A stretch of 64,000 bases of DNA from Nitrosopumilaceae archaeon (GCA_965214835.1 CBDCCK010000002.1:1-64000), one strand, 5' to 3'; counted from the stretch's first letter, positions 23,598 to 46,847 are shown. Numbers and translations: made by a program. Notes: generated by a model from the sequence alone, not told the origin.

Positions 23598-25322
23598 ATG
23601 GTTGGAGGCATAAAATCGTATTACCGGGTGGTCGTCCCGTTCCAGGATGTCCGCGACAGGCACGATCATTCCGAACGTCTTAACAGGATGCTCTCAAAGT
23701 TTGACACGGTAGGAATTGAGATCCGGCCTGTTGAATACCGCGATAAATACCGCGACGAGCTTGGCGGCGGCATCAGGGATCAGTCGTGGGGAAGCGTTGT
23801 AAACGACATGTTTAGGATCGCCGTCCGCGACGGAGTGCTGGAGAAATCCAGGACGGAGGGCACCATACCCGAGTGGTTTGGCAAGCTTGAGACCGTAAGA
23901 TACTGGACATCCCAGCTGCGCATCTCAAGGATGAAAAATAGCAAACATGCCTGTTCCCGCCGATCAACGTCGGCGTTATATGTCACCCTCCTGTGGAGGC
24001 TCAACAGGTGGCTGTCCGGCCGGAGCTTCACCGTCAGCAGGCGCGTTCCTGCGGGGGCCGACACGTACCGGATGTCGCGCGAGCAGGTAAGGTTTGATAC
24101 TGTCGAGGATCTGCTGGATCTGGCCCGCGACTGCGCGCCTGCGCCGTCTCCGGACGTGAGCCGGATAATCAAAGAGTACCTGGTTGATCCCATTCACTCC
24201 GGGATATCGCCTAACAGCGTCATCATCATGCGCAGCGCCATCCTGTCGTATTTTGCATCAAACGATCTGCCGGTAACCGTACGCTTCAAGGCCGGCATGG
24301 TGTATGCCGCGTCCGAGGAAGAGTCCGCGACGCTTTCACTTGACGAGTTCGCCTCCATGCTCGTCGAGGGTCACGCCTCTGTTACCGAGAAGGCCGTGCT
24401 TTTGTGCAAGCTCCATCGGGGCCTGGACACGGCGACCATGGCAGACCGCTTCAACTTTGAGGCGCTGGATCAGATGCGCGCCCACTTCAGGTCAGAGGAC
24501 CACCGCCTGTGGGATCTCAACATGTGTCCCGTGCCAATCACGCTGACGCGCATCAAGACCGGATACAGGCATGCCGGGTTTCTGGAGCGCGATGCCGTGC
24601 AGGCCGTATGCAAATATCTTGACTATGCCGCAAAGCACGACATTCCGGTGGACGGCGGGATGTTCAAGAACCAGGACCGCCGCCCGATCAGCGCCGACTG
24701 GATACGCATCCACTTTCGAAAGCTTGCCCTCCGGTGCGGCATAAAATGCGTCTCCCGCGACGGCCGGCGCCTCAGCCGCGGCGTCACCTCGCACGAGCTG
24801 CGCGACCTGCTAAAGTCGACCCTGATAGACTGCGGCTGTCGCATCGACGTTGCAGACCACGTGATAGGACACATGCCAAAGGACTCGTACGAAAAGCAGT
24901 CCATCCTGTATCCGGATACGATGCGGCGCGAGTACGCCAAGGCCGCCGGCAGGCTCAACATATTCACAAAGATGTCAAACGTCCTTGCAGGCAGGGACGA
25001 TCCCGGCCTGATGCTTACGAGGCTGGCAGAAAAGGAGCGCCAGCTGGAACGGATGCTGGAGGACAGCACCGCCGAGTTTGCCGCAGGCCAGCGTAAAAGC
25101 ATGGACAAGGATGCCCGCCTCTCCCAGCTTGATGACATGATGAGGCGCATCAGTGCGCTGGAGGGGGGCCTCAGGCCCGGAGCACAGCCGCCTGCAGGCG
25201 GAGGCGCGGGAAGGGGGGCCGCGCTGGAATTCTCATGTACCGGCTGCGGCCTGATACACTCCGAGCAGTCGTGCCCGAGCTGTGGCTCCAAGGTCCGCAG
25301 AATCTACGAGTCCCCTACGTAG
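23598..25322 (+). CDS. Tyrosine recombinase/integrase with C-terminal coiled coil and Zn ribbon
   Basis: RIKT, SHELR, IGH...SY catalytic-like residues; CTGC..CPSC tail. Confidence 0.85.
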   Translation: MVGGIKSYYRVVVPFQDVRDRHDHSERLNRMLSKFDTVGIEIRPVEYRDKYRDELGGGIRDQSWGSVVNDMFRIAVRDGVLEKSRTEGTIPEWFGKLETVRYWTSQLRISRMKNSKHACSRRSTSALYVTLLWRLNRWLSGRSFTVSRRVPAGADTYRMSREQVRFDTVEDLLDLARDCAPAPSPDVSRIIKEYLVDPIHSGISPNSVIIMRSAILSYFASNDLPVTVRFKAGMVYAASEEESATLSLDEFASMLVEGHASVTEKAVLLCKLHRGLDTATMADRFNFEALDQMRAHFRSEDHRLWDLNMCPVPITLTRIKTGYRHAGFLERDAVQAVCKYLDYAAKHDIPVDGGMFKNQDRRPISADWIRIHFRKLALRCGIKCVSRDGRRLSRGVTSHELRDLLKSTLIDCGCRIDVADHVIGHMPKDSYEKQSILYPDTMRREYAKAAGRLNIFTKMSNVLAGRDDPGLMLTRLAEKERQLERMLEDSTAEFAAGQRKSMDKDARLSQLDDMMRRISALEGGLRPGAQPPAGGGAGRGAALEFSCTGCGLIHSEQSCPSCGSKVRRIYESPT

Positions 25323-25374
25323 CAGTCCCCCCGGATGTGCCGTTTGGCGGCCGGTGCCGGCATCTCCTCCTTCT

Positions 25375-26163
25375 GGAGGACAGACTCCCTTTCCTCCTCG
25401 CCAGTCACCGTCTTTACGCGGGGCGTCCTGCGGATGCACTCGTGCTGTCATGACAGACATGCCAGACGATCCCCCTTAAGACCTTGATCGGCAGCAGGAG
25501 ACGGGCTTGCGAGTGCTGAAATGGCAGCCCGCAACATCCATGATGAGGTGCGTCACGCGTGGCCCCGGATGAGGCCGGACGCCCGCAACTCCGCAAGCCT
25601 TCTGAGCTCCATGACCCGGTAGTAGCCATCAAAAAAATCGGCGACCGTCACCTTTTCGTGCAAAAAGACGGACACTGAAAAGCCCAAAAGCCGCTTCTCC
25701 TCCTCCGTTATTACCACGTGCCTGACATCCAGACCGGAGAGGAGGCGCTCCAGCTCGTACACGATTCCGTCCCTGGCAAACGCGTCCATCTGAAAGAACT
25801 CTTCGGCAATCCCGTCACCGAGCTGGTGCATGGCCTGCAGCTCAACCAGATCGTACTTGCCGAGAATCATTATCTTGTCAACCGTCTCGACAATCCAGAA
25901 GCCATGCCTGATGCGGACCCGGGAATTGTCAAGCACGGTTATCCTGTTCTCTTTTGCAAGCAGTGCATACCTGCAGGACTGCGGGAAGTCCTGCGCCACT
26001 CCGTGCGGAATGCCCGAATCATGCAGAATCCTACGGACATCAGCTTGCTCCAACAGGAAGCAGAGCGCATGATGCTATAAAAGCATGCACGGGCAGCGGA
26101 CGTGACGGGACTGCCCGCCCCCGGGCAGCGGCCTGGCACGGACGGCAGGCGGCAGTGATTTTC
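25375..26163 (-). repeat. Long diverged inverted repeat, copy 2
   Basis: See 20165-20957. Confidence 0.85.
25553..26053 (-). CDS. Hypothetical protein, paralog of 20275-20775
   Basis: Near-identical translation. Confidence 0.7.
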   Translation of the reverse strand: MEQADVRRILHDSGIPHGVAQDFPQSCRYALLAKENRITVLDNSRVRIRHGFWIVETVDKIMILGKYDLVELQAMHQLGDGIAEEFFQMDAFARDGIVYELERLLSGLDVRHVVITEEEKRLLGFSVSVFLHEKVTVADFFDGYYRVMELRRLAELRASGLIRGHA

Positions 26164-26559
26164 TTCCCGGCCTGCAGGCTGCCACGGAACCTCCACTGGC
26201 CGATACACCGCGGGGCTCCCGCGCGCCTTCCAGCGGTCCGTGTCTAGAGGGACACCGATGGGTACTGGCCGGTGAACTAAATGCCGGCCTCGATGTCGTG
26301 GTGGACACGTGACTCGTGCAACCATGCCATCGACGTGCCAGTCACCATAGCACTGAGTCGTAATCTGCCGAATCTGGAGAAAGGGTTGCGGGTGTTTTAT
26401 GCGCATCACACATAATCGGCAGTCGTCAAACCATTGATGCCTGCGGGTTTGGCTCTGCTGGCCTAATCGTGGTAATGGGTTGGTAGTGGCCTAGAATTGT
26501 TTGCAACAACATTCCATAGAAGGGTTTCTCCTTTGTTGCCACTACCATGAATATGTGTG

Positions 26560-26660
26560 TCATGCTCCTTTTTAATTGATTTCAATTAAGTTCTTAATTT
26601 ACTCTGATGTACACAGATTTGCAACTTCGATATCCTTAAATCCTCCATCTTCCTAGGTAA
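26560..26660 (+). promoter_or_regulatory. AT-rich putative promoter of the element operon
   Basis: AT-rich island with dyad TTAATTGA-T-TTCAATTAA and TATA-like CCTTAAAT upstream of the first gene. Confidence 0.4.
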
Positions 26661-26662
26661 AT

Positions 26663-26983
26663 TTGCAACAACATGTCAGTCATAGAAGGGGTGAGACACT
26701 GATAGATGGTAGAAATTCCAAGTCATCACTGAGTGCAGCTGTCAGCCCGCAGACTGCCAAGCTGATAGACCGGATAATCTCAAAGTCCGAGATCTTCTCG
26801 GATCTGACAAAGCTCGGATACCCGACTGCCAGGGCCAACGTCCTACGCGCGGCCCTGATCACATTCCTTGACAACCTGGATGCAGTCGAAAAGAACCCCG
26901 AGCTTCTGCTGCGCGCATCGACTGACTATGCGATGCACCAGTCACTGGCACGGATTTTCAAAGAGGAGGAAAAGTCACGATGA
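26663..26983 (+). CDS. Small hypothetical, possible RHH-like regulator
   Basis: First gene of operon; ATGA overlap with RNR. Confidence 0.55.
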   Translation: MQQHVSHRRGETLIDGRNSKSSLSAAVSPQTAKLIDRIISKSEIFSDLTKLGYPTARANVLRAALITFLDNLDAVEKNPELLLRASTDYAMHQSLARIFKEEEKSR

Positions 26984-29577
26984 CCGGCGCCACCATCACA
27001 AAGCGCGACGGTACGTCGGTGCCGTTTGCGCCAGACAAGATAGAGGCCGCCATGCGCAACGCCTTTGTGCAGTGCGCAAGGGATCTCCCGCCGGAGCTTG
27101 TCCGCACCGTCGTCTCCAGAACCGCCGGCATCGACGGGCAACTGACCGTCGAGGACGTGCAGGATACCGTAGAGTCTGCGCTCATCGACGGCGGATACCA
27201 CGAGGTCGCAAAGGCCTACATACTCTACCGGCACGAGCACCGCCGCCTCCGCGATGAAAAGTGCCGCATACTGCAGACATCCAAACTTGATCCCGTCTCA
27301 AAGAAGTTCGACACCAACTCGCTCCGCGTGCTTGCATCGCGCTATCTGGTACGGCACGACAACCGCATAGCAGAGTCGCCGCAGCAGCTCTTCGAGCGCG
27401 TCGCAACGCTGGTGGGAATGTGCGAGCTGCTCTATGATCCTGGCGTGTATGATGTGGCAGCCGGCCACTCACAGGATGCTACTGCCGCACTCGCATACCT
27501 TGAAAAGACGGAGGCCTTTGACGGCAAGCTGGCAGTCGGCGGCCGGTACCGCCTCAACAGGCATCACTTCCGGGGGCTGGCATCCCTGTATGCCGAGCTT
27601 GCAGGACATATGCGCTCCGGCTTCCGGGACGTCCTTGCGGGCATCGCATCAGGCGCCATCGGACGCGAGGCCGCCACCGCCATATCCAATTATATCGGGC
27701 TGATGAGCTCGCGCGACTTTCTTCCAAACTCGCCCACCCTGATGAACGCAGGATGCAGCCTGGGGCAGCTGTCTGCCTGCTTTGTGCTGGAGATGCCTGA
27801 CCGCATGGAAAAAATAATGAAATCGACGTCCGATGCGGCCATGATATTCAAGTCCGGCGGGGGGGTTGGAATCAACTATTCTGATCTGAGGGAGGAGGGC
27901 GACATCGTGGCCTCCACATCTGGCGTGGCCTCGGGCCCCATGTCGTTCATGGAGATAATCAACACCATAACCGACGTCATAAAGCAGGGCGGCAGGCGGC
28001 GCGGTGCGAACATGGGCATCCTGGACATGTCGCATCCGGATGTAGAGGGGTTCATCGAGCGCAAACTCAGGCCCGGAATCCTTGAGAACTTTAACCTCAG
28101 CGTCGGCATTGATGCCGACTACTGGGAGGCACTATACTCTGACGGCCACTATGACCTCGTATCGCCGCGCACCGGGCAGGCAGCAAGGCGCGTCTATGCC
28201 AGGCACCTCCTCGAGCTTGTGGCGCAGTCGGCGTGGAATAGCGCCGAGCCCGGCGTCATCTTCTGGGACAACGTAAACAAATACAACGTGCTACGCCCGG
28301 CCCGCGGCGCCGATATCAGGGCGACCAACCCGTGCGGCGAGCAGAGCCTGTACCCGCACGAGTCGTGCAACCTCGGATCCATAAACCTGGCAAACTTTGT
28401 CACCGGCGATCCCCCCGCCTTTGACTGGGAGCGATTCGAGTCCGTCACGAGATCATGCACCAGGTTCCTTGACAATGTGATTGACGCAAACCGCTATCCT
28501 ACCACGGAGATATCGCGCGCCTCGCGCGAGACCCGCCGCATAGGGCTCGGCGTCATGGGCGTGGCCGACCTCCTGTACGCGCTCGGCATCCCGTACAACT
28601 CCGAGGAGGGATACGCGCTGCAGTCGCGGATCTCAGAGACGCTGACATATGTTTCGATGGATGAGAGCGTCAAGCTTGCAGAGTCGCGCGGCGCCTTTCC
28701 GCTGTATCCAAAGACAGAGTATCCGGACGGCCGGATTCCCGTCGCAGGATACCACGAGTCCGCAGAGTCTCACTGGGACTGGGACGCGCTCGTATCCCGC
28801 ATACGGGAGCACGGCATCCGGAACGTGATGACCACCACCGTGGCGCCGACTGGCACCCTTGCAATGATTGCCGACTGCACCAACGGGATGGAGCCGGCAT
28901 TCGCGCTGGTCTTTGAAAAGCGGGTATCGGTCGGCCGGTTCTTTTACACCAACAGGATCTTCGAGCAGGCTCTGCGCGACCGCAACCTGTACAACGAGGA
29001 ACTGCTTGCGCGCATCGCCGAGCGCGGCGGCTCCATACAGGGGATGCACGAGATCCCAGAGTCCCTGCGCCGCGTCTTTGTGACTGCCATGGACATCCAC
29101 TGGGCAGACCACTTGATGGCGCAGTCAGTCTGGCAGCGGTGGACGTGCAACGCGATAGCCAAGACCATAAACATACCGCACGAGGCAACTGTCCAGGACG
29201 TAAAGAGCGCGTACGTGCTGGCGCACCATCTGGGCCTCAAGGGGGTCACCGTATACCGCGACGGCTCGCGCAACGAGCAGGTCATGTATGCCGACGCGCA
29301 GGAGCGGCCCGCCCCAGAGATGAGCTGTTATGTACGCAATGTGATGGACGGTCTTCCCGACGATGTCAAAAGGCACATGGATTCCCCCGGCGGCCGGACT
29401 CCGGCACAGACGGCAGGCTGTGATGCGGCATCACCGCCGGCGGCGGCGGCCACGGATGCCAGACAAAAAAAGACCGCCGCCGATGACGGCACGTGTCCTG
29501 CATGCGGGTCCGATACGATATTCTCAGAGGGCTGCCATCTCTGCCTTGACTGCGGGTACAGCGGGTGTGCATCATGA
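26980..29577 (+). CDS. nrdJ: Class II (B12-dependent) ribonucleotide reductase with ATP cone
   Basis: ITKRDG ATP cone, PNSPTLMNAG, LSACF, TNPCGEQ, CNLGS, APTGT, TVYRDGS, C-terminal CxxC/CxxC. Confidence 0.93.
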   Translation: MTGATITKRDGTSVPFAPDKIEAAMRNAFVQCARDLPPELVRTVVSRTAGIDGQLTVEDVQDTVESALIDGGYHEVAKAYILYRHEHRRLRDEKCRILQTSKLDPVSKKFDTNSLRVLASRYLVRHDNRIAESPQQLFERVATLVGMCELLYDPGVYDVAAGHSQDATAALAYLEKTEAFDGKLAVGGRYRLNRHHFRGLASLYAELAGHMRSGFRDVLAGIASGAIGREAATAISNYIGLMSSRDFLPNSPTLMNAGCSLGQLSACFVLEMPDRMEKIMKSTSDAAMIFKSGGGVGINYSDLREEGDIVASTSGVASGPMSFMEIINTITDVIKQGGRRRGANMGILDMSHPDVEGFIERKLRPGILENFNLSVGIDADYWEALYSDGHYDLVSPRTGQAARRVYARHLLELVAQSAWNSAEPGVIFWDNVNKYNVLRPARGADIRATNPCGEQSLYPHESCNLGSINLANFVTGDPPAFDWERFESVTRSCTRFLDNVIDANRYPTTEISRASRETRRIGLGVMGVADLLYALGIPYNSEEGYALQSRISETLTYVSMDESVKLAESRGAFPLYPKTEYPDGRIPVAGYHESAESHWDWDALVSRIREHGIRNVMTTTVAPTGTLAMIADCTNGMEPAFALVFEKRVSVGRFFYTNRIFEQALRDRNLYNEELLARIAERGGSIQGMHEIPESLRRVFVTAMDIHWADHLMAQSVWQRWTCNAIAKTINIPHEATVQDVKSAYVLAHHLGLKGVTVYRDGSRNEQVMYADAQERPAPEMSCYVRNVMDGLPDDVKRHMDSPGGRTPAQTAGCDAASPPAAAATDARQKKTAADDGTCPACGSDTIFSEGCHLCLDCGYSGCAS

Positions 29578-30083
29578 TAGGCTGGGTGATGCACGATTAT
29601 GGGGACCGGCGGATGCCTCACTATCATGCCGGCGGCGCCCGGAGCATATGCGGGAAGGCCGACATCTTTGCAGCAGTACCCGGAACCCTGCAGGCGATAG
29701 GCGCGCCGGTAAAGCGTGCGCGCTGTCCTGCGTGCAACGACGGGTACAAGTCTGCGCGCACTGCCCGCGTGCTGCAAAAAGTCACGGATTCCAGGCGGCG
29801 CATACTTGAGACATACCGCTCCCGGCCAAGGGACTTGGTATGGCAGGCGATCTGGTACCGCGAGTCCGTCGGACTGGACGAGCTTGCGGCGCTGTTCTCC
29901 TCCTCGTTTCCGGAGGTTGACTTTGAGGACGCGCTGGGAACGCTCATAGTGAACATGCGCGTCTCCCTGTCGCCTGGAGCCACGGCGACGGAGGCGGCCA
30001 CGCTTGCATGCGTCATGGAAAAAGAGGCCGGCGGCCGGATGCCTGGCGGCCCCTCGACAACGGAGGTCCTGCATGCATCCTGA
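29574..30083 (+). CDS. Hypothetical Zn-finger protein
   Basis: H..SICG...RCPAC; ATGA overlap with nrdJ. Confidence 0.55.
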   Translation: MIGWVMHDYGDRRMPHYHAGGARSICGKADIFAAVPGTLQAIGAPVKRARCPACNDGYKSARTARVLQKVTDSRRRILETYRSRPRDLVWQAIWYRESVGLDELAALFSSSFPEVDFEDALGTLIVNMRVSLSPGATATEAATLACVMEKEAGGRMPGGPSTTEVLHAS

Positions 30084-30984
30084 CTGCCGGACTGCCGGGC
30101 AGGGGCACATGCGGCATCACGAGTGTCCGCGATGCCGGGGCAGGCTTGTCACCGATCCGTCAAGCGCCGAGACGGTGTGCGCATCATGCGGCATGGTCAC
30201 CGGGTGCTCGTATGACGTGCCTGCCATCCCCGACAGCGGGGGTGGCAGCGGCCACGAGATCGCCTTCCTCCACGCCGACTCCTCTGTCGGCTGTGCCCCG
30301 GTCAACATCCCGCGCCTGAGAAAGGTCGACAGCATAACGCGCAGGCGCGACGGCAGGGCCGCAATGCAGCACGTCCTCGCAGGCATGACCGACAGGGCCT
30401 GCCTGCCCCCGTTTGTTGTCTGGGATGCCACCGCCCTTGTGGACAGCGCAAAGCTGCACGGGATCGTCAAGAGATACGGCATGAAATATGTGGCCGCATC
30501 CTGCATGTATCTGGCCAGCAGGACAAGCGGCAGGGTCATCATGCCGGCCGAGATTGCCAGGCGCGAGAACCTCAGGATGAAGAGGATCAACACGACAACG
30601 CGGGCAATCATCGCGGAATGCTGCATCCCTCCCGTCTCTGCTCGTGATGTCGTCGAATCGATCATGCTGCGCGCCTGCAACACCCTGGGGCTCAAGAGCC
30701 GGTACGTGCTCGCACATGCGCGCTCCAACCTTGGCATACTGGAGGACAGCAACGAGCTGTCCGGCAAGCGCCCGTCCGTCCTGGCAGGTCTGCTCATCTG
30801 GCTTGCAAGCCGTGGCGGCGGCAATATCAGCAGCAGCAACGGCGGCGGCGGCAGCAGCAGCAGGCGCACGACCCTCCGCGACATCTCAAGGGCCACGGGA
30901 GCCACCGACGGCGGCATACGCAGCATGGGTGCCGAGCTCAAGCGACGGCACATAGAATGCCGCTGCGAGGAGGGACTGCCTTGA
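30073..30984 (+). CDS. Divergent TFB/TFIIB-like protein 1
   Basis: CPRC..VTD..ETVCASCGMV Zn ribbon; cyclin-fold motifs AASCMYLASR, SGKRPSVLAG, TLRDISRATG. Confidence 0.8.
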   Translation: MHPDCRTAGQGHMRHHECPRCRGRLVTDPSSAETVCASCGMVTGCSYDVPAIPDSGGGSGHEIAFLHADSSVGCAPVNIPRLRKVDSITRRRDGRAAMQHVLAGMTDRACLPPFVVWDATALVDSAKLHGIVKRYGMKYVAASCMYLASRTSGRVIMPAEIARRENLRMKRINTTTRAIIAECCIPPVSARDVVESIMLRACNTLGLKSRYVLAHARSNLGILEDSNELSGKRPSVLAGLLIWLASRGGGNISSSNGGGGSSSRRTTLRDISRATGATDGGIRSMGAELKRRHIECRCEEGLP

Positions 30985-31799
30985 GCGCCTGTCAGGCCGG
31001 CATCGCCGCCGTCGGCAGCAGTAGCAGCAACAGCAGTGCAGGCCCCGGGTCCTGCTGCGCGTCGTGCGGCAGTACACCAATAACTGACACCGTGCGGTGC
31101 GAGGCAGTCTGCGTGTATTGCGGCATGATACGGGAGACCTGCCGCATTCCTGCCGTCGGCGACAGCCGGGCGCGCGAGCGACGGATGATGCGGCTGGCGG
31201 CCGCGCTGGACTGCCAGCTTGACTGCCACGGCCTGGCAGAGCCGGTCCGCCATGACGCCTTTGTCCTGGCCCGGAGGATCGTCGCAGACGATCGCGGCCT
31301 CCGGCACGGCTACAGTGCGGACACCATTGCCATGGCATGCACTCACATATCGTGCAGGCAGCACGGCATACGGCTCGGCTTCCATGCCATGACGCGCGGC
31401 CGGCCCGTCAGTACCGGAACCGTCAGACGCGCGGCAGACGCGGTTTCTGAGAAATACGGCATATCATACATGTCCGATCTAGAGAGGGTTCACTCTGAAG
31501 CAGTCCGCCTTGCGATCCGCCTGGGGGTCTGCAAGGCAGATGTGCTTGATGCCGTGCGGCACAACATACACATAATGGCCCAGCGCGGTCTGCTGGCAGG
31601 ATGCAATCCCCGCGTGGCCGCCGCCCTGCTGGTACTGCTGGCAGGAGGAGCCAGTGGTGATGGCCGCCTGCGACAGCACGCCGTCAGGTCAGACGTTGCC
31701 GCAAGGAATGCCGGCGTTTCGGCAGGCGCAATAACTGCGCTGCGCCGCAAGTGTGCCGGTGCCGGACTGTATGATGCCAGGAGGGGGTGCCTCACATGA
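30981..31799 (+). CDS. Divergent TFB/TFIIB-like protein 2
   Basis: CASC..ITD..EAVCVYCGMI; GYSADTIAMAC, AGCNPRVAAA, VAARNAGVS. Confidence 0.75.
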   Translation: MSACQAGIAAVGSSSSNSSAGPGSCCASCGSTPITDTVRCEAVCVYCGMIRETCRIPAVGDSRARERRMMRLAAALDCQLDCHGLAEPVRHDAFVLARRIVADDRGLRHGYSADTIAMACTHISCRQHGIRLGFHAMTRGRPVSTGTVRRAADAVSEKYGISYMSDLERVHSEAVRLAIRLGVCKADVLDAVRHNIHIMAQRGLLAGCNPRVAAALLVLLAGGASGDGRLRQHAVRSDVAARNAGVSAGAITALRRKCAGAGLYDARRGCLT

Positions 31800-35722: not shown

Positions 35723-35737
35723 CTACCCCCTCCTGCC

Positions 35738-36266: not shown

Positions 36267-36452
36267 ATGAAATCCGATCTGAAAAAGGCATCAGAAGAAG
36301 TGACCATATCATTGGAGCATATAGCTGGCGCACTGGCATGTATTGACATGGGTGAGTTTCCGAAAATGGATGATCAACTAAAGAAACAACTACTGGAACT
36401 GTCTACGGTGGCTGCTGCGTTGGATACCATATGGGAGGAGAATGAAAAATAA
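36267..36452 (+). CDS. Small hypothetical protein
   Basis: 61 aa; overlapping stop/start with the next gene. Confidence 0.55.
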   Translation: MKSDLKKASEEVTISLEHIAGALACIDMGEFPKMDDQLKKQLLELSTVAAALDTIWEENEK

Positions 36453-36628
36453 TGCACATGTGGAAGGTTTTGCGTCTGGACAGTGAAGGAACATGGTATC
36501 CGGACACGTTTGATAACAAGGAAAGCGCGATGAAAGGGCTGGAGCGGGAACTGACCAAGGACTTTATCCGTGTAGAGATACTGGACATAACAGTACCAGA
36601 CGACGAGGAGGTTGATGCCGATGCCTGA
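36452..36628 (+). CDS. Small hypothetical protein (58 aa, not in ORF track)
   Basis: MHMWKVLRLDSEGTWYPDTF...EEVDADA*; TAATG coupling, GGAGG upstream. Confidence 0.55.
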   Translation: MHMWKVLRLDSEGTWYPDTFDNKESAMKGLERELTKDFIRVEILDITVPDDEEVDADA

Positions 36629-36782
36629 TCCCATCTGCGACGGCTGCGGCGAGCGATACCTTCCTGGCACCGGCCGGGAGGGATACTGCGCTGCCTGCAA
36701 GGCCGAGTTTGACCGGGATTTCGAGGCCGACATCTCCCGGGTAAAAAGAGCGATAAAGAAAGAGGTTGATGCCGATGCCTGA
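36621..36782 (+). CDS. Small Zn-finger protein (53 aa, not in ORF track)
   Basis: MPDPICDGCG...YCAACK; RBS-like GAGG; overlaps both neighbours. Confidence 0.6.
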   Translation: MPDPICDGCGERYLPGTGREGYCAACKAEFDRDFEADISRVKRAIKKEVDADA

Positions 36783-37980: not shown

Positions 37981-38917
37981 TCTTGAAGGTGTCGCATCGC
38001 GCATAACAGATGAGACCCCCATGATCTCCCTTGAGCACACCGGCGAGATCCTCGCGTATGTCGACGGCGCATACGTGCCCGGCGGCGAGATCATAGTCGA
38101 GCAGTCCTGCGAGGAGCTGATACCCGACTGCACGACTGAGGCCCGCGAATCCGTCCTGGAGATCGTCCGCCGCGCCACCGTGACCCCGCGCATGTGCTGC
38201 GATCCCCCCGGCCTCCTGGTGTGCTCAAACGGCCTGCTCGATCTGCACACCATGAGCATCGAGTCCCACTCGCCGCTTGTCCGGTGCAGGACAAAGCTTG
38301 ACGTGGAATACGACCCGTGCGCCAGGGCGCCGCAGTACACGGACATGATATACCGGATTCTGCCTGACGGGCCCTCCCGCGAGGCCCTGCACCGGGCCTT
38401 TGGTTCTGCGCTGCTCAGGGCGTCCTGTCCCCCTCCCGCCCCCGCCCTGCTGCTTGGCGGCGCTGCAGGCGTCGAGGGGCACGACCTGGTGCTCGGAATC
38501 ATGGAGCGCGTACTCGGCCCCAGGAATGTCGCGCACCTCAGGCCGTCAGACGTCATGCACCACCCGTACATGAGATCCCAGCTTGACGGCAGGATTGCCA
38601 GCATATCAAGGTATAACACGGTCTCGGAGCTGCTGCACGTCGCACACGGAAGAGGCATCCTTGCCTCGCCTGCGCTTGCCGTGCAGCAAAAGGGCGCAGG
38701 CCAGTACCTCATACCAAACCACGCCCGCCTGTTTCTCTCATGTAATGACCCGCGCCCGCCTGCGCGCATCCTGTCCCATTTTGGCTGCGTGATACGATTT
38801 TCTGACTGCGGCGACTGCGGGGCGGACTCTGATTTGGATTCCCTGCTTGCCGGCCCCGAAAGATCCGGCATATTGAACCTGCTCATCGAGGCGGCCGGCG
38901 GAGGTGCCATACAGTGA
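37973..38917 (+). CDS. Degenerate D5/P4-like helicase paralog
   Basis: Colinear with the core of 38914-41130 (NGLLDL, KLDVEYDP, LDGRIA, NHARL) but Walker A lost. Confidence 0.75.
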   Translation: MSDLEGVASRITDETPMISLEHTGEILAYVDGAYVPGGEIIVEQSCEELIPDCTTEARESVLEIVRRATVTPRMCCDPPGLLVCSNGLLDLHTMSIESHSPLVRCRTKLDVEYDPCARAPQYTDMIYRILPDGPSREALHRAFGSALLRASCPPPAPALLLGGAAGVEGHDLVLGIMERVLGPRNVAHLRPSDVMHHPYMRSQLDGRIASISRYNTVSELLHVAHGRGILASPALAVQQKGAGQYLIPNHARLFLSCNDPRPPARILSHFGCVIRFSDCGDCGADSDLDSLLAGPERSGILNLLIEAAGGGAIQ

Positions 38918-41130
38918 GCGGCAGCACGCACGCAGAAAAGTTCGGCTGCACTGCCAGGATGATCGACGACTTTCTGCACAGGTGTGTCAGGCAGAATCAC
39001 GGGATACTGTCAGCCAGGTGCAGCGCCGGGACGCACGACATAGATCCCGAGAGGCCCGCGTACGTCTTTGCCGGCGAGACAGGCAACCTGACTGACTCGT
39101 ACTGCCACATGGCAGAGTGCTTTCTGTCCGTGCTGGATCCTGCGACGATAAGGTCCATGCATGATGGCGGCAACCGCAGTAGTAGTGGTGGTGGTAATAA
39201 CGGCGACAGGAAGACTCCTGCCGCTGCCGCTGCCGCCTCTGCGGCCCGCCGTGGAAGCGCGTCGCCCGTAAAGCGCAGGCGCGTCTCGTACCAGTGCTTT
39301 GACTGCGACAACCGCCGGGGCTCATACAAGGACTTTGAGGAGTGCCGACGCCTCCGGCACGACGTCGTCCCGTACTCGGAGGGCCCTCCGCCCCCGTCGA
39401 CGTCGCCGTCCCCCTCAGGGGATTCGGCTGCGGCAGCCGCAGCGGGTGGTGACAGGACTGCGGCTGCCGCAACAACCGCAGGTGGCGGCGGTAATGGCGA
39501 CAGGCCGACTCATACGGATCACGCGATGGCAATCATGGCAGACTATAATTTTTTGACCCTGAATGACACCCGCGAGATACTCGTGTACCGCGACGGCGTG
39601 TACGTGGCCGGCGGCGACATCGTAATAGAGGAGGAGGCAGAGCGCCGCGTCCCCGACTGCGCTACCGTCATGCGCAAGGAGATCCAGAATACCATACGGG
39701 CGCACACGTACGTTGACAGGAGGCTGTTTGATTCTGATGACTCCAAGCTGGTGGTTGAAAACGGCGTGCTTGACCTGGTTACGGGCAAGCTCGGCGCGCA
39801 CACGCCGCACGAGCCGTGCCGCATAAAGCTCAACGTCGCCTATGATCCGGACGCCCTGTCACCCCACTATGACGAATTTATGAGCCGCGTCGTCCCCGAC
39901 GAGGAGGACCGCCTCACCCTGCACGAGTTATTTGGCGCGGCGCTGTTGCGCAACTCGCCTAATCTGGAAAAGATAACGATGTGCACCGGCGAGGGCGCCA
40001 ACGGAAAGTCGACGCTGCTCGGCGTGTACAACGACATACTTGGAAACCAGAACGTGGCGCACGTCTCCATACACGACCTGATAAACCACAGGTTCATGCG
40101 CTCGAACCTTGACGGCAAGCTGGCAAACATCTATGCGGACATCAGCAACAACGAGCTGGAGCACATGGGAGTGGTAAAGTCGCTTGTCACAGGTGAGACT
40201 GTGACCGTCGAGAAAAAGGGCACCAACAGCTTTGACATTGAGAACCACGCAAAGCTCATCTTCAGTTGCAACCGCCTGCCGGAGATATCAGAAGACAGTG
40301 ATGCCATATTCAGGCGCTTTGTGATAATACCGTTTACCGTCAGGATACCCGAGGATGAGCGCAACCCGGCCCTCAAGGGAGAGCTGCTAAAGGAAAAGTC
40401 GGGGATATTCAACATACTGCTGAAATGCGCGCTGGAAGTCAGGCGCGCCGGCGCGCTGACTCACGGCGGCACAACAATGGAGACGCGCCGCGCCTGGAAG
40501 GGTATGGCCGATCCCGTCGAGGGCTTTTCTGCCGGTCATCTGTCCAGGGAGCCCGGACACAACGAGCCAAAGTCGGCCGTGTACGAGGCGTACGTGGCGT
40601 GGTGCAGCAACGCCGACCTCAAGCCCAAGACCAAGCAGGCCTTCTCTGCGCGCATGGAGCGGCTCAAGTACAGGTGGGGCAAGGCGCGCATTGACGGTAA
40701 GTCAGTCAACGCGTGGCTGGACGTCCGCTTATTTTCCGGCGAGCAGGCAGGCGATCCGACCGTGGCAGGTGGCGGTGGTGGTGATGATGATGGCATCGGT
40801 GGTGGTGATGATATCTTGCGGCCTGCGGCAGGTGGCGGTGGCAGCAGCAGTGGTAGTGGTGATGATGATAGTGGGACTGCTGACGGCAGTAGCAGTGACC
40901 GCCCCGGTGATGATTCAAAGCGATGGTCCGAGATGGTGCCCGAGTCCGAGATGGTGCCCGGCACCACATACTATGAGTGCCGCACGTGCGGCGCCGGCCC
41001 GTACACCGGCGGTGCCACCGGCATCGGCGGGCGCCTCATCTCCGACGTCCACCGCTCCATGGGACACGACTATGGGCCGTGTAAGGATGCAAAAAAGGAC
41101 GGGAAGGAGGATGGTGACGGCGGCACATGA
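38914..41130 (+). CDS. D5/P4-family SF3 helicase (phage/plasmid primase-helicase C-terminal type) with Zn-binding extensions
   Basis: ENGVLDL, GEGANGKST, KLIFSCNRLP, AIFRRF, C-terminal wHTH-like segment. Confidence 0.9.
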   Translation: MSGSTHAEKFGCTARMIDDFLHRCVRQNHGILSARCSAGTHDIDPERPAYVFAGETGNLTDSYCHMAECFLSVLDPATIRSMHDGGNRSSSGGGNNGDRKTPAAAAAASAARRGSASPVKRRRVSYQCFDCDNRRGSYKDFEECRRLRHDVVPYSEGPPPPSTSPSPSGDSAAAAAAGGDRTAAAATTAGGGGNGDRPTHTDHAMAIMADYNFLTLNDTREILVYRDGVYVAGGDIVIEEEAERRVPDCATVMRKEIQNTIRAHTYVDRRLFDSDDSKLVVENGVLDLVTGKLGAHTPHEPCRIKLNVAYDPDALSPHYDEFMSRVVPDEEDRLTLHELFGAALLRNSPNLEKITMCTGEGANGKSTLLGVYNDILGNQNVAHVSIHDLINHRFMRSNLDGKLANIYADISNNELEHMGVVKSLVTGETVTVEKKGTNSFDIENHAKLIFSCNRLPEISEDSDAIFRRFVIIPFTVRIPEDERNPALKGELLKEKSGIFNILLKCALEVRRAGALTHGGTTMETRRAWKGMADPVEGFSAGHLSREPGHNEPKSAVYEAYVAWCSNADLKPKTKQAFSARMERLKYRWGKARIDGKSVNAWLDVRLFSGEQAGDPTVAGGGGGDDDGIGGGDDILRPAAGGGGSSSGSGDDDSGTADGSSSDRPGDDSKRWSEMVPESEMVPGTTYYECRTCGAGPYTGGATGIGGRLISDVHRSMGHDYGPCKDAKKDGKEDGDGGT

Positions 41131-42791
41131 GTCCTCCTACTCCTGCTACTCCCCCTTCTCCACAGCTTCTCGCCTCGTTTCCCCCCGGACTCTCCCCGCG
41201 TCCGGAGCAAAAACGCATACTTGCAGACATCGGCGAGGCGCTTGCCTCGGGGTACCGCGATATCATACTGTGCGCGCCCACCGGTGTTGGCAAGAGCGCC
41301 GTGGCAGCTGCGGTCGCCCGCTCGATGGGAAGCTCGTTCGTGCTTACCGCCCAGAAGATACTCCAGGATCAGTACTCGCGCGACTTTGGCTCGTGGCTTG
41401 CCCCCGGCAAGGGCAAGGGCAACTTTCCGTGCCGCGCCCTGTACGAGGGGGTCATGTCCCGTGACGAGGCGGCATCCGACCCGTCCGTATCGTGCGCCAA
41501 CGGCGTGTGCTCGTGGCACACGCCGCAGGGAACCGCGCACTGCGAGTACAAGCCCGTCCTGGCCGAGTTCGAGCCCGGCGGTGAGTGTGGTGATGACGAC
41601 AATTGCTGCCACTATTATTCGGCAAAATATACGGCGCTTGCCTCGCCGCACTCTGTATACAACTATGCGGCATACTTTGCAATACGCGGCCAGTTTCTTC
41701 CGGACCGGCTCATCCGGAGGCAGGTCGTCATTTGTGACGAGGCCCACGAGCTTGAGGACGTGCTGGCAGAGCACGTCGGCTGCGAGATAACAAGATCGTA
41801 CCTTGCCGACGCCGACTCTGCGTTTTCCGAGTTTGAGGATGTCGATGCCGTCGAGGGTGTAACCCGCATGGTCTCGCTTCTCTGCGACAGGTACGGTGAG
41901 CGCCTGCGCAGCTCGCCGGACGGGAGGATGCAGTCCCGGCTGGAGCGCCTCTCGCTGTGCAGGTACGAGCTGGCAAACAGCCCGGGCAACGTGTCCGTAC
42001 AGGTCAACCGATATGATGACGGCCACGTGCGGTCCGTCTCTGTCCGGCCCCTGTCCGTGTCGCGGTACGCCGAGAGGTATTTGGACTCGCCGCACCGGAT
42101 CTTCATGTCTGCTACCATCCATCCGGACATGTTCTGCGGCCGCATGGGCATTGACGGGCGCGACTGCTGCTTTGTGGACGTAAAGACCGCCCCCTTTGAG
42201 GCCTCCCGCGCCCCCGTCTCCTTCTGCGACGTGGCCGCCATCAACCGCGATACCGGCGAGGACGAGTACGCCCTGCTATACGATAGGATCGACTCGATAC
42301 TGGACATGCACGGCAACCACAAGGGGTTGATACTGGTGTCTTCGGTGGATCAGTGCCGCAGCATTGCCGCCGGGCTGTCCGAACGCAACCGGGGCAGGCT
42401 GCTGCAGGTATACAACTCGGCGCCGCTTGAGCGCGACGAGACGCTGCGCCTGCATGCCGGCTCCCCCGAGCCGACGGTCCTGATATCGCCGAGCCTGTGG
42501 TACGGCGTTGACCTCCGCGGGATGCTCTCCAGGTTCTGCATAATAGCAAAGTGTCCGTTTCCGTCTCTGGCAGACAGGCGTGTCGGCGCGCTGGCAAAGG
42601 CAAGCCCCGTATGGTACCGGTATCACACACTGTGCAAGATGCTCCAGGGGATGGGGCGCAGCATACGGAGCGAGGACGACTGGGCCGACACGTATGTTCT
42701 GGACTCCAACGCCGGCAAGCTCGTGCGGCAGATGTCCGCATACGTCCCTGACGCATACGGGGAGGCGCTCTCGGAGGTAGGGGGAAGATGA
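41127..42791 (+). CDS. XPD/DinG/Rad3-family SF2 helicase
   Basis: PRPEQ, APTGVGKS, Cys cluster, DEAH, SAT, GVD, QGMGRSIRS. Confidence 0.9.
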   Translation: MSPPTPATPPSPQLLASFPPGLSPRPEQKRILADIGEALASGYRDIILCAPTGVGKSAVAAAVARSMGSSFVLTAQKILQDQYSRDFGSWLAPGKGKGNFPCRALYEGVMSRDEAASDPSVSCANGVCSWHTPQGTAHCEYKPVLAEFEPGGECGDDDNCCHYYSAKYTALASPHSVYNYAAYFAIRGQFLPDRLIRRQVVICDEAHELEDVLAEHVGCEITRSYLADADSAFSEFEDVDAVEGVTRMVSLLCDRYGERLRSSPDGRMQSRLERLSLCRYELANSPGNVSVQVNRYDDGHVRSVSVRPLSVSRYAERYLDSPHRIFMSATIHPDMFCGRMGIDGRDCCFVDVKTAPFEASRAPVSFCDVAAINRDTGEDEYALLYDRIDSILDMHGNHKGLILVSSVDQCRSIAAGLSERNRGRLLQVYNSAPLERDETLRLHAGSPEPTVLISPSLWYGVDLRGMLSRFCIIAKCPFPSLADRRVGALAKASPVWYRYHTLCKMLQGMGRSIRSEDDWADTYVLDSNAGKLVRQMSAYVPDAYGEALSEVGGR

Positions 42792-43864
42792 GCGGCCTGG
42801 CGCCGGCGGCGGCGGCCGCGGCTGTTTCTGCCAGGAAGCCCCCGTTCCTCCCCGGGGTCATACCCGAGACCCTCGGCAGGGGCGGGCTCACCGTCTCGGA
42901 GCTGCTGCACGGTGCATCCTGTGATGCCGTGCGCCGCGAGGCCGTAAACCGCGTGATATCGGCCGAGACGGGAAGGCAGTACTGCGCGGTAGGCGGCCCC
43001 GTCGTCATGATCGGCGGCATGACATACAGGCAGGACGTGCTGACGTATGTCGTGGCCTCGGCCATTTGTAACGTAAAGGGCGACAGGGTCCTGACAAAAA
43101 AGTTCGCGCTGTCCGAGTCCGTGACTGCCGAGCCCTTTCTTCGCGGCCACCCGAGCCCGGAGGACCTGGTATCCGAGATGGCATCCATAAAGGCGCTGCG
43201 CGACGGCGCTGAATACCGCGTTCCCGTCGCCGACTATCTTCCGCTTGCCTGCCGCATAAGCAGCATGGAATGGAAGCTGGTAAACCAGCGCGTCACCGGT
43301 GGGTACGTCATGCTTGCCAAGAGGAGGATGGTGCGGCTGGTGCGGCACGCCATGGCCGCATACGTCATTGATCAGGTCAACGGTATGTCCCTTGGGAGCA
43401 GGGATGCAGAGGCGCTTGCCGGATATGCGGCCAAGGTGGGGACCACCCACGTGTGGGCCGGCAGGAGGCCTCCTGCAGACGGCGGCCGCCTGCCCCCGTG
43501 CATCGCGCACTGCAGGCAGCAGCTGAAGGAGGGCGAGAACCTGCCCCATGTAGCCCGGTTCCTGCTTGCTTCATACCTGCTCAAGGCAGGTACCCCCGCA
43601 GACGACATTGCAGTCCTGTTTCAGACGGCCCCCGACTATAACGAGGCAGTCACGAAATACCAGATAGGCCAGATAGCGAGATCAGAGTACCTCCCCCCCA
43701 GCTGCGCCAAGGTGGAGACGGCAGGATGGTGCAGGAGGAGCGAGGCCTGTGGGAACATAGCCAACCCGATCCAGTTTGGGAGGCATGACGGCCGCGTCCT
43801 ACAAGAGGACGAAAATGACACGCCCGTCCCTGAAGAAAAAAGCATGGAGGGGGACATCCCCTGA
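42788..43864 (+). CDS. priL: Archaeal primase large subunit (PriL)-like
   Basis: WKLVNQ...GYV, PPCI, NLPHVARF, APDYNE..TKYQI, YLPPSC..C....C Fe-S domain. Confidence 0.88.
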   Translation: MSGLAPAAAAAAVSARKPPFLPGVIPETLGRGGLTVSELLHGASCDAVRREAVNRVISAETGRQYCAVGGPVVMIGGMTYRQDVLTYVVASAICNVKGDRVLTKKFALSESVTAEPFLRGHPSPEDLVSEMASIKALRDGAEYRVPVADYLPLACRISSMEWKLVNQRVTGGYVMLAKRRMVRLVRHAMAAYVIDQVNGMSLGSRDAEALAGYAAKVGTTHVWAGRRPPADGGRLPPCIAHCRQQLKEGENLPHVARFLLASYLLKAGTPADDIAVLFQTAPDYNEAVTKYQIGQIARSEYLPPSCAKVETAGWCRRSEACGNIANPIQFGRHDGRVLQEDENDTPVPEEKSMEGDIP

Positions 43865-43872
43865 GAAAGTGC

Positions 43873-45465
43873 GTGTATTGCGGGGTGTGGCTGTCAGGCG
43901 GCAGCGTGCACCACGGACTTGTTGTGGACCGTGACGGGATCCGGTTCTCACAGCTTCCATCATCGGTCAGCGACGAACCATTCGAGTATTACTGCTGCCA
44001 TGCGTGCTTTACCATGAACCGCGAGAGGGTCATCGCAAGGATAAGCGGTATGGTGGGCGGCACTGCCGGCCGGAAGGGTGCGCCGCGCTGCCAGGTCTGC
44101 CGCAGGAAGATCACGGCGTATGGGCGCCACATCACCTGCTCCAAAAAATGCGCGGAAAAATATTCCGTACGGCTTGGAGGGCATGGCGGCGGCGGGGGGA
44201 GGAATTCCACATGAGGGTTGCAAAGTCGTGCCGGATCTGCGGCCGGGACCTCCACTGCAGCCAGGGCGCCGGCATGCCGGATCGCCGCCTGGTCACCTGC
44301 TCTGGCAGGTGCTCCTCGGAGTACTCCCGCCTCATGTCACGCGCGCGCCATTCCGCCAAAGGTCCGGAGGACGCGGCATGAGTCCGGGTGATCGTTGCGG
44401 GTGCCTCCACGTATGCCGCAGCTGCCCGGGGTTTTCACATAGTTGGTTGCGTGCCGCGTGCCGGGAGGATGAGGATGAGGATGCCAATAAAGGGGGAAGG
44501 TGCCCGTGAGCCGGCAGTGCGCGGCCTGTGACCGGCGCGCAGTAATGACCGTCGGCGCGCAGCACCTCTGCCTGCGGTGCTCCGGGGCCATGGAGGACGA
44601 CCCGTTCAGTTGCAGTCCGGATGTGGGCAGTTGGTATGATCCCGCCGAGTTTGACAGGCAGTGGGAGCGTGCCATGAGTACTGACCTGCGCAGGTGTGAA
44701 TATGGGGGTTGTGAAAGATATGCGTGGTGGAATGTGACTGACCTCGGCTTTGTCCGGTGGTTCTGTAGGATGCACTATGTGGAAAAAACGGGGGAGGAGG
44801 CCTGCGACGCCTGATGAACTGCCAGAACCGTTGTGAGTATTACAAGATACCCAAGACGCTCCCCCACGCCGACAAGGGGCTGTGCCGCGAGTGCGGCATC
44901 TTCATGTTGTGGGCGGGGTTTTTCTGCCCGTGCTGCGGCACCAAGCTCCGCAAGAAGAGGGTGACGCGTGTGTGCCGCGCGCGCCAGCATAAGATGATGG
45001 GGGTGAAGAGGGAGAAATGACACGCCGGGGATTCTGGCGGTTCCTACCGTGTAAGGTGTGTGGTGTCAGGTTCGAGGTCAGAATACATCCAGGAAGAAAG
45101 TGGCACCGCGTCTGCTGCTCGCCTGAGTGCAGCCATGAGAACCGCCGCGCCTCCTGTAAGGAGTATGACAGGAAGATCAGCGGTGCCAGGTCCGTGGTCA
45201 GATGGATATACAGGATGGTTACCGGAAGGCCCCTCATCTGTGGGGTGGCCACAAGACACCTGGTACGCCACAGTATGATAGGGACCGGCGACCCCCGCTC
45301 CCTGAAGGGTTGGGGGTACAAGTCCTGAAGATCACCATGACGAAACGGTGCGCTGTTTGCGGCCATGACCTCCGGTGCAGGCATACAGGCATCATGGAAA
45401 GAAGGACCTATAGCCATGGGTGTAGTGTGATTATGAGCGGATGTGACACCACAGGAGGCGCCTGA
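43873..45465 (+). other. Run of ~7 tiny overlapping Cys-rich ORFs (43873-44214, 44211-44381, 44378-44509, 44506-44814, 44814-45020, 45017-45328, 45337-45465)
   Basis: CxxC pairs in each; ATGA/GTGA/TGATG coupling and GGAGG-like RBS. Confidence 0.7.
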
Positions 45466-45588
45466 AGGAGGAGGAGGGGTGTTATTCCAGGTGATGGTGA
45501 CGGACCGTTTTGGATCCCATATTTTGGAAGGACAGTCCCTGTTTTTACGGGGGTCAAACATTCAAATGTCTCCCGACCGCGCCAAGAG

Positions 45589-46026
45589 TTGATGTTGTTT
45601 GGAAGGAGGAGTAAACCGCGCCTCATCAAAATAAGGGGTTTTGAGCCCCCAACGGCCTCCAATAATCCGGTTGACGGAAAATTGAGACTGAAAAAGGAGG
45701 TTGAAGGAAAGGTTGAAGGCCTAGAGGAGATCAGGGGTTTTTGCCTCGGGAAAAAACTGTCTGTTAACGTGAGGTTTTTCCTGTATGATGGGACCGGTGG
45801 GACTGCACAGCCAGAGGGAAGGACAAGGAAGGATCTTGATAATATGTTGAAGATTGTCGTGGATGTGCTTCCTGAAAAGATGGACAAGGACGGCAAACAT
45901 GACGGATTGGGCCTTATCAGGGGAGATGCAGACGACATGGTATATGAGATAAGGGCTGTAAAGGAGACGGTATCCAATATAGATAAGGAGGGAATGGATA
46001 TCGAGATTTCAGAGTTTAAGGGTTGA
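45589..46026 (+). CDS. RusA-like Holliday junction resolvase
   Basis: KDLDNMLK...DD motif; start uncertain. Confidence 0.7.
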   Translation: MMLFGRRSKPRLIKIRGFEPPTASNNPVDGKLRLKKEVEGKVEGLEEIRGFCLGKKLSVNVRFFLYDGTGGTAQPEGRTRKDLDNMLKIVVDVLPEKMDKDGKHDGLGLIRGDADDMVYEIRAVKETVSNIDKEGMDIEISEFKG

Positions 46027-46194
46027 TTTTTTAAAAATGTCTGGTTGGTTGGTTTGGCCAATCTTGATGTTTTTTGGATTGGGTTTTGTGTGATGAAAGA
46101 AGGAATGTTTTGTTGTTTTTGTCGGTGTTGGTGGTGTGTAATGTGATCCATATGTGGCGTAACCTGGCACCCTGCGATCAGAACTTTTAACGGT

Positions 46195-46313
46195 TGTTCC
46201 AAAGTTCCATTGTTCCAGCGATTCCATACTGCCGTATATTTGGGGAAAATAAGGAAAAATGTCGTCTGCCACACAGCGGTGTAGAAATGCTGGAACACTG
46301 GAACTTTGGAACA
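46195..46313. repeat. 25-bp inverted repeat built from the TGTTCCAAAGTTCCA motif
   Basis: 46195-46219 vs 46289-46313, one mismatch. Confidence 0.9.
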
Positions 46314-46847
46314 TTTCTCACGCCTGACGTTTGCCACACAAGGAACCTTCAGAATTTGATCACTTTGCCACAAAACGAGACTGGAACAGATTTTGGCGGA
46401 ATTCATCCCGGATCTCCGAAAAGCGTGCGGATCTCGACGTGGCAAAATACTCGTCGGAATGGATTTTGAAAATTGATCTAAATTTCGGGCTTTTTGGGAA
46501 TTTGATCTGAAATAGCTGGAACAACTCTGGAACATGGTGGAACATCCGGGTGTTTTTGGCGGATTTCGGATCGGTTTTTGCGGAATTTTTCGGAATGGAT
46601 TTGGGGGTCTGATCGCAAAAATCACCTATTTTGAGAAAAACTCTGGAACAATGGAACACAAATATCAAAAAAGTACCGGAAAAGCGATCAGGATTCCCAT
46701 GGGTGTTCTTTGATCGATGTTGGTGTAGTCGGGATGTTATTTCTTGTTTTGCGCAACCTTGATGATGATGACGCAAATATCATGGTAGATATGCTGCAGA
46801 CAAGGACAAACTGTAAAACTTGGGAAGGCGCGACAAACCAAAGATCC

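Follow-up and report, generated by a model that had tools for sequence, protein, structure and literature searches.

The first 64 kb of a 3.21-Mb contig (C2) from a Nitrosopumilaceae archaeon (genome G000; 3.22 Mb, 52.6 % guanine plus cytosine, GC) contain a plus-strand gene array, at 23,598-46,026 (59 % GC), in which an integrase is followed by replication, transcription and partition genes of largely cellular appearance. Here we ask to what kind of genetic element this array, in the 64-kb stretch referred to below as the window, belongs. An earlier reading of the window (the original prediction) proposed that 23,598-46,700 is a self-contained, capsid-less integrated element of an undescribed class or, failing that, the replication half of a large provirus. 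Our analysis indicates instead that the segment probably forms the integrase-bearing end of a single integrative and conjugative element (ICE) of about 195-199 kb, located between nurA and the ortholog at C2:219,002, and is the module by which that element is replicated, partitioned and transcribed.

Gene families were assigned with Pfam, and open reading frames (ORFs) of the window were also searched with PHROGs and, for individual proteins, with Atlas. The predicted gene content and coordinates of the segment hold in these searches, with the RusA-like gene recovered through Atlas (Table 1). Most junctions among the module genes overlap, several of them by 4 bases, which fits the coupled operon originally proposed. 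The integrase has 206 homologs, and most of the 120 listed carry PF00589; a PDB sequence search with it returned no match. Integrase fragments elsewhere on C2 (the N-terminal 87 residues at 2,396,324-2,396,582, 69-89 % identity, and 60 residues at 2,273,185, 52 %) are probably remnants of related elements. Inspection of the PolB translation by eye locates DIE, SLYPS and YGDTDS, which we take to be the PolB motifs. The short D5-like paralog aligns with residues 207-453 of the long one (38 % identity) and, by eye, lacks the Walker A motif.

The array does not hold the host's only copies of these genes, in agreement with its proposed assignment to mobile-element DNA. Host copies of NrdJ, PolB and PriL lie at 781 kb (58 % identity), 2.80 Mb (42 %) and 1.04 Mb (36 %), the host PriL being adjoined by the host PriS; no PriS belonging to the element was found in the genome. 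Two paralogs of the XPD-like helicase are also present, at 262 kb and 433 kb, and the latter is broken by an insertion sequence (IS). For comparison we used four relatives carrying similar modules, two from the same genus (G039 and G014), one from another genus (G041) and one from a third (G419). In a quick IQ-TREE reconstruction of PolB (45 rows), a seven-member element clade (Shimodaira-Hasegawa approximate likelihood-ratio test, SH-aLRT, 100) comprises the window copy, three metagenome proteins (97, 49 and 46 % identity) and the copies of G041, G014 and G039; it is sister (100) to 14 PolBs of the host family, inside the PolBs of the phylum. This placement supports the cellular, RNA-primed type assigned to the enzyme. 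A scan of genome contigs with a PolB alignment returned host PolBs only. One 178.5-kb contig from a near-identical strain encodes both a PolB (97 % identity) and an integrase (85 %) matching those of the window. Five element copies of PriL split from 28 host copies in an unrooted tree of 33 rows (SH-aLRT 100), and in the NrdJ tree (30 rows) the element copy occupies a long branch at the base of the Nitrosopumilaceae clade, apart from the host genus. The phylogenies, which had been suggested as a check, set element PolB, PriL and NrdJ each apart from the host copies. Judging from these trees, the element clades of PolB and PriL appear to be separate and fast-evolving, and we read both genes as putatively captured once from an early Nitrosopumilaceae-like host. 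NrdJ would have been added later, because among the elements compared it was found here alone; no homolog of it turned up in the regions retrieved around the four related modules.

The extent of the element follows from synteny. The nurA-herA-mre11-rad50 operon of G039 and G014 has orthologs of C2:219,002-222,894 in front of it and orthologs of C2:4-11 kb on its other side. In G000, nurA ends at 19,954 and 199 kb (19,955-219,001) separate it from the orthologous block beginning at C2:219,002. Because nurA adjoins that block in both relatives and not in G000, the interval represents a 199-kb insertion in G000. The synteny comparison suggested for the segment does reveal DNA missing from genomes of the same genus, but what is missing spans 199 kb rather than 23 kb. 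An empty site was also sought in the nearest relative, G080, whose NrdJ is almost identical to the host's and whose 76 %-complete assembly lacks the nurA region. The inserted island has a GC content of about 56 % in 5-kb windows, above the genome mean, and the element runs past the end of the 64-kb window. PF00589 has two matches in the whole genome and just one in the island, the integrase at 23598-25322. Two Pfam scans of the island, covering the 141 ORFs of at least 110 amino acids (aa) returned by a crude ORF caller, gave 41 family rows (20 and 21, with two accessions in both). The families include methylases, transposases, DndB, Cas3_HD, actin-like ALP_N, surface-protein repeats, TraG-D_C, P-loop_TraG/AAA_10 and T2SSE; ribosomal or metabolic-core housekeeping, capsid and terminase families are absent among these 141 ORFs. 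Cas1, whose absence had been noted, has no family match in the Pfam scans of window or island.

Outside the window, about 96 kb from PriL, the island encodes one VirD4/TraG-like and one VirB4-like protein in tandem, and a T2SSE secretion ATPase lies farther along. The reported lack of VirB4 consequently applies only inside 23,598-46,700, which is the end of a 199-kb insertion with three conjugation-type ATPases and probably not a self-contained element. No relaxase was recognised in the element. Elsewhere on the chromosome, at C2:2,757,426-2,765,790, another VirB4-like gene (28 % identity) is clustered with T2SSF genes and a gene for a T2SSE ATPase. This second cluster could represent a further locus for conjugation or pili, or else a second ICE.

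With these genes, the larger element looks conjugative rather than viral, so that of the proposed large provirus only the membership in something larger stands. A provirus with virion genes that have diverged beyond recognition would account for the D5-like helicases, PolB, ribonucleotide reductase, RusA and HNH genes, all frequent in viruses, and for the island ORFs, most of which have no Pfam family; archaeal capsid proteins, moreover, often escape profiles. An IMG/VR search with a D5 alignment also returned 529 viral stretches encoding relatives of the helicase, but the best 80 of these 529 loci show no PolB or PriL homolog beside D5. Deposited phages and plasmids contain nothing close to the element PolB, the best identity being 23-28 %. 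Profile searches, which can miss archaeal capsids, detected neither capsid nor portal nor terminase families among the 141 island ORFs (Pfam) or the window ORFs (Pfam and PHROGs), in agreement with what had been noted for these genes, and conjugation ATPases are present instead. We consider a provirus highly improbable.

The gene order ParB, D5, PolB, XPD, PriL recurs in G041 (67 % GC), G039, G014 and G419, with protein identities of 31-51 %. The long D5-like helicase is 41-50 % identical to the copies of G041, G039 and G014, the XPD-like helicase 38-41 % identical to the syntenic genes of related elements, and homologs of the ParB part of the ParB-methyltransferase fusion lie beside the modules of G041, G014 and G419. 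The element of G419 further shares the integrase, at its left end (40 % over 542 aa), the short-plus-long D5 pair and a TFB-like gene (25 % identity with TFB-like protein 1), and that of G014 adds a PriS-like gene. Searches with D5 in 101 genomes of the family found matches in 11, and searches with PriL in 401 genomes found at least two matches in 22. Four of these 22 were already known module carriers, and six more were checked for a second PolB, which is present in G419, corresponds only to an interrupted host gene in G169 and G099, and is absent from G189, G345 and G013. The module is thus known from five genomes: four of the 101 sampled with D5, plus G419 among the 401 sampled with PriL.

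This patchy distribution, together with chromosomal insertion sites that differ between the module genomes, speaks against a further explanation, namely that the array is a domesticated chromosomal accessory operon for replication or repair that has lost its mobility. Such an operon could explain the IS and toxin-antitoxin insertions adjoining the integrase and the apparently inactivated short D5 copy, and archaea are known to have accessory operons with PolB for which a role in repair has been proposed (Krupovic et al. 2019, PMC6563490). Both the integrase gene and the remaining large genes nevertheless retain intact open frames, and the element copies evolve fast; domestication appears improbable to us.

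A more serious competitor is an independent unit of only about 23-35 kb, either a cryptic integrated element or an integrated plasmid, reaching from the integrase to the RusA gene and perhaps including the adjacent defence genes, that lies in an accretion hotspot together with a separate ICE and other islands. Integrated elements of the cryptic kind that carry replication genes of their own have been described (PMC6563490, as excerpted), GC falls from about 60 % to 43-48 % past 46 kb, and IS and dispersed repeats lie at 20-23.5 kb and 46.8 kb, around the proposed unit. Against it stand the single tyrosine integrase available for the whole island and the gene content shared with G419: 47 of the 194 island ORFs match the G419 element (E<=1e-8), the matching ORFs being spread from 23.6 to 214.4 kb, as opposed to 0 of 52 flanking ORFs. 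The ParB protein at 55790-56611 is 64 % identical to the ParB encoded directly upstream of the G419 TFB-like gene, and homologs of the gene at 213,440-214,396 adjoin the modules in G419 and G041. Module and VirB4/VirD4 homologs share one contig in all three other genomes where this can be judged, at distances from PriL of 64-68 kb in G419 (51 % and 59 % identity), 20-42 kb in G041 and 65-110 kb in G014. VirD4-like genes occur in 18 of the 101 genomes, all four module carriers included (one-sided Fisher test, 7.5e-4), although three of the four carriers are congeneric and the 18 include a genome that is flagged as unpublished. In G419, the high-GC tract containing the element spans about 158 kb, with GC steps at about 1,578,000 and 1,737,000 and no repeat at these steps. 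The evidence favours an island that is one element rather than several, and we regard the stand-alone element as unlikely.

Several observations nonetheless weigh against a single large ICE. Exact and BLAST searches for attachment (att) sites in the form of direct or inverted repeats, comparing 19.9-26.7 kb with 43.8-64 kb and 195-220 kb, recovered chance or dispersed repeats only, and the repeats near both island ends belong to dispersed multi-copy families; a lack of att sites linking the two ends would also suit the stand-alone element. So would G039, in which the module occupies a 19.7-kb contig without conjugation genes and the VirB4/VirD4 homologs lie on other contigs. Logan contigs (four runs from one study) covering 14001-34000 revealed neither a joint indicative of excision or a circle nor a copy number that could be used, which would also suit a domesticated operon; no RNA run is listed among those containing the stretch. 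The contigs match 23609-34000 without differences, break at dispersed repeats, and contain joints solely between repeat copies. ARAGORN calls six tRNA-like genes in the island, one of which is the genome's sole intron-free tRNA-Arg(CCT) call, so that some island DNA could be host DNA. Given its several transposases and lower-GC blocks, the island may also combine an ICE with elements of other kinds. Among the conjugation genes, no T2SSF/TadC family was found in the island, polytopic membrane ORFs are indicated by hydropathy only, and the VirD4-like protein has no PDB match. Lastly, the PolB, PriL and NrdJ trees carry long-branch and composition warnings.

Two repeat arrays separate PolB from the ParB-methyltransferase gene. 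The palindrome of the first array has 0 further copies across the 3.2-Mb chromosome. The second array, directly adjacent, contains TGGAACA cores that reappear in the non-coding tract beyond the RusA gene; this heptamer occurs 23 times in the window (9.3 expected), with 20 of the 23 occurrences inside the two clusters. A 641-aa reading frame called at 34345-36270 is an artefact of translation through the arrays. Related units lie between the D5 and PolB genes of other elements, as 9.3 perfect copies of a 54-bp TGGAAC unit in G419 and 4.2 copies of a 17-bp TGGAACA unit in G039. The simplest reading of this recurrence is that TGGAAC arrays may constitute a conserved cis site for an element-encoded protein, and the arrays are candidates for a replication origin.

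We tentatively propose, with somewhat less than even confidence, that these modules define an undescribed lineage of giant (~110-200 kb) conjugative elements. A single capture of cellular PolB and PriL, close to the root of the Nitrosopumilaceae, would have founded the lineage, which would since have retained both genes alongside helicases of the D5 and XPD-like types and conserved TGGAAC iterons. Such an element would in effect be a transferable second replicon that encodes part of a replisome as well as transcription factors and, in the present case, also provides deoxynucleoside triphosphates (dNTPs) for itself. Full-text searches of the literature found no Nitrosopumilaceae ICE with such a module. 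In the working that we envisage, the integrase would excise a circle, and the D5-like superfamily 3 (SF3) helicase would load at the TGGAACA iterons, at the palindrome array beside PolB, or at both. Priming would combine element PriL with host PriS (the G014 element would bring its own PriS-like protein), elongation would fall to element PolB using dNTPs supplied by NrdJ, and the XPD-like helicase and RusA would process intermediates. ParB proteins and the palindromes may partition the episome, the TFB-like factors may direct host RNA polymerase to element promoters, and transfer between cells would rely on the VirB4/VirD4/T2SSE machinery, with methylases and restriction-type genes as cargo.

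Table 1. Features of the window and of the island beyond it. Positions count from the first base of C2; a point marks features without strand.
Feature	Position	Strand	Evidence and remarks
Left border zone of the insertion	19955-23597	.	Synteny break directly after nurA
rve transposase	21743-22834	-	Pfam rve 1.8e-13
ParE toxin/ribbon-helix-helix (RHH) antitoxin pair	22930-23452	-	ParE 1e-4; VapB/RHH-type antitoxin
Tyrosine integrase, 574 aa	23598-25322	+	Pfam Phage_integrase E 4.3e-5 (below curated cut-off); phrog_216
Inverted duplicate, ~800 bp	25375-26163 vs 20165-20955	.	79-89 % identical; flanks transposase, toxin-antitoxin and integrase
106-aa protein, operon head	26663-26983	+	No Pfam family; paralog towards the other island end, C2:214875-215120 (28 % identity, E 4e-10)
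NrdJ, class II ribonucleotide reductase with ATP-cone	26980-29577	+	Ribonuc_red_lgC 1.5e-144
172-aa ORF	29565-30083	+	No Pfam or PHROGs family; Atlas score only 0.82
TFB/TFIIB-like protein 1	30004-30984	+	TFIIB 1.6e-8, Zn_Ribbon_TF 4e-5
TFB/TFIIB-like protein 2 (weak)	30957-31799	+	TFIIB 0.0014, below cut-off
PolB with exonuclease domain	31787-34348	+	DNA_pol_B 6e-49, exonuclease 7e-15
Palindrome array	34442-35721	.	22 exact copies of ATGTGGCAA(T)ATTGCCACAT, spacing 49-73 bp
Tandem array	35734-36130	.	84-bp period or 39/45-bp half-units; 10 TGGAACA cores; directly after palindrome array
Two small ORFs (61 and 58 aa)	36267-36628	+	Between arrays and ParB-methylase gene; no family match
ParB_N fused to MT-A70 DNA methyltransferase	36766-37980	+	Pfam
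Short D5-like paralog	37895-38917	+	D5_N alone; Pfam, PHROGs
D5-like superfamily 3 helicase	38914-41130	+	D5_N, DUF5906 and Pox_D5 (Pfam); PDB 7ola 'DNA primase' 5.7e-16
XPD/DinG-type superfamily 2 helicase	41127-42791	+	Helicase_C_2/DEAD_2
PriL, primase large subunit	42788-43864	+	DNA_primase_lrg 9e-20
Small cysteine-rich (zinc-ribbon-like) ORFs	43873-45465	+	One with a weak HNH-endonuclease PHROG match
RusA-like Holliday-junction resolvase	45589-46026	+	Pfam weak, 0.0054; Atlas 0.95, 25/30 matches in RusA sets
Non-coding tract, second TGGAACA cluster	46190-46660	.	10 cores at 46,195-46,658; inverted pair 46195-46313
PLD-SNF2 helicase (1116 aa) and Eco57I-type methyltransferase (1325 aa), cargo pair	47035-54359	-	Family scan
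ParB_N protein, backbone gene of the element family	55790-56611	-	Pfam
Modification/restriction-type cargo	56659-64000	-	Methyltransferase, ResIII helicase (59262-62165), N6_N4 methylase; last gene runs to C2:64866
VirD4/TraG-like	C2:139713-142709		TraG-D_C over cut-off
VirB4-like	C2:142722-144563		P-loop_TraG 1.4e-11 and AAA_10, both over cut-off; PDB 4ag5 (VirB4-like) 6.7e-9
T2SSE secretion ATPase	C2:198471-200108		Adjoins 657-aa ORF with ~10 hydrophobic segments (hydropathy only)

Downstream of the module, the PLD-SNF2 helicase and its methyltransferase are 74 % and 56 % identical to a pair in the G014 element, where some 6 kb separate it from PriL. The helicase also occurs in three copies in G061, of the same genus (53-56 % identity), and behaves as a mobile defence-like cassette. 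Four paralogs of 715-774 aa are encoded in the island (C2:72174-77137 and 101100-107181; L019:15657-17765), with homologs in the G419 and G014 elements; we presume from their N-terminal motifs that they have the look of GHKL-type ATPases. An NrdJ gene in another genome, G066 (L022, G066:C6 6585-10280), is split after residue 452, before residue 453, by an insert of roughly 1.1 kb that may be an intein, and lies 7 kb from a D5-like helicase.

The left border zone also holds a 110-bp tandem repeat. Three dispersed repeat families, represented at 20008-20130, 21173-21261 and 23488-23546, have about 30-40 copies each in the genome. Elsewhere in the genome the first family directly adjoins the third, so that here one repeat unit seems to have received an insertion of 3,365 bp, comprising one arm of the inverted duplicate as well as the tandem repeat, the ParE/RHH pair and the rve transposase. 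The inverted duplicate includes a 120-aa ORF (25718-26080) with paralogs at C2:652794 and C2:2565512. At 46847-46940, and again at 3566-3658, lies a 94-bp dispersed repeat with internal inverted repeats and about 137 chromosomal matches (81-95 % identity); it matches no Rfam family and may be a miniature inverted-repeat transposable element or a structured RNA. The 64-kb window as a whole contains no tRNA or Rfam features. The adjoining host rad50-mre11-herA-nurA operon (13570-19933) has a GC content of 37-40 % in a 52.6 % GC genome, and its Rad50, the sole copy, is only 35-55 % identical to the Rad50 proteins of same-genus genomes. Contig C1 (13,188 bp) carries a 1.76-kb IS with at least 13 near-identical copies on C2, one of which (C2:434,011-435,590) interrupts an XPD-like paralog.

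The interest of this element lies in its size, its replisome genes, apparently captured long ago, and its candidate origin arrays. Ammonia-oxidising archaea are usually pictured with small, stable genomes, and their known conjugative elements are few and thought to depend on the host for replication. If our proposal is correct, ICEs of 100-200 kb with a polymerase and a primase subunit of their own could partly account for those Nitrosopumilaceae genomes that exceed the usual size two- to threefold, and would provide a second, independently evolving copy of an archaeal replisome for comparison with the host's. The iteron and palindrome arrays would constitute a concrete candidate origin that could be used for vector building in a group for which, to our knowledge, there are no genetic tools.

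Among known systems, the element most resembles the ICEs already described in thaumarchaea, which encode VirB4/VirD4, TFIIB and ParB and have a median size of 64 kb according to the excerpted text of Krupovic et al. 2019 (PMC6563490; see also Abby et al. 2018, PMC5797428, seen likewise in excerpt). It shares with them a chromosomal location in Nitrososphaerota, an integrase, a pair of VirB4/TrbE-like and VirD4/TraG-like proteins, a FlaI/PilT-type ATPase, TFIIB homologs, ParB-like genes, restriction-modification cargo and the lack of a recognised relaxase. It differs in its size of about 199 kb, against that median, and in carrying a pair of D5-type SF3 helicases, PolB, an XPD-like helicase, PriL and also NrdJ. 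In addition, the TFB-like genes of the window lie upstream of PolB and not beside ParB, although in G419 a ParB gene does lie directly upstream of a TFB-like gene. The same excerpts name only one ICE with a PolB, NitEve-E6, whose PolB is casposon-like (PMC6563490), unlike the PolB described here, which is sister to that of the host family. The cryptic element ThaMY3-E2 (98.3 kb, with PolB and MCM; PMC6563490) is similar in combining an integrase and host-like replication genes with an absence of virion genes, but our element has conjugation ATPases, a D5-type SF3 helicase instead of MCM, and PriL, an XPD-like helicase and NrdJ besides. The definition of a cryptic element fits 23.6-46.7 kb taken alone and fails for the whole island, which the evidence favours as the unit. 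Family 1 and 2 casposons are likewise self-replicating archaeal elements with PolB; the present element departs from them in its tyrosine integrase and cellular-type PolB, and neither Cas1 nor element-specific terminal inverted repeats were seen.

Conjugative plasmids of the Sulfolobales such as pNOB8 also have a VirB4/VirD4 pair without a relaxase, use ParB for partition and can integrate, but they are far smaller and belong to a different phylum, and we know of none with the PolB/PriL/NrdJ set. By description only, the element can be likened to the jumbo extrachromosomal elements of Methanoperedens, archaeal elements of a different host phylum that are also very large and carry defence cargo, one 409-kb relative of which is chromosomally integrated (PMC13444090, in excerpt). 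Since thaumarchaeal ICEs with TFIIB and ParB were already known (PMC6563490), the claim of an undescribed class is not sustained, and our best reading is that of a giant variant of these ICEs, neither a new class of element nor a provirus.

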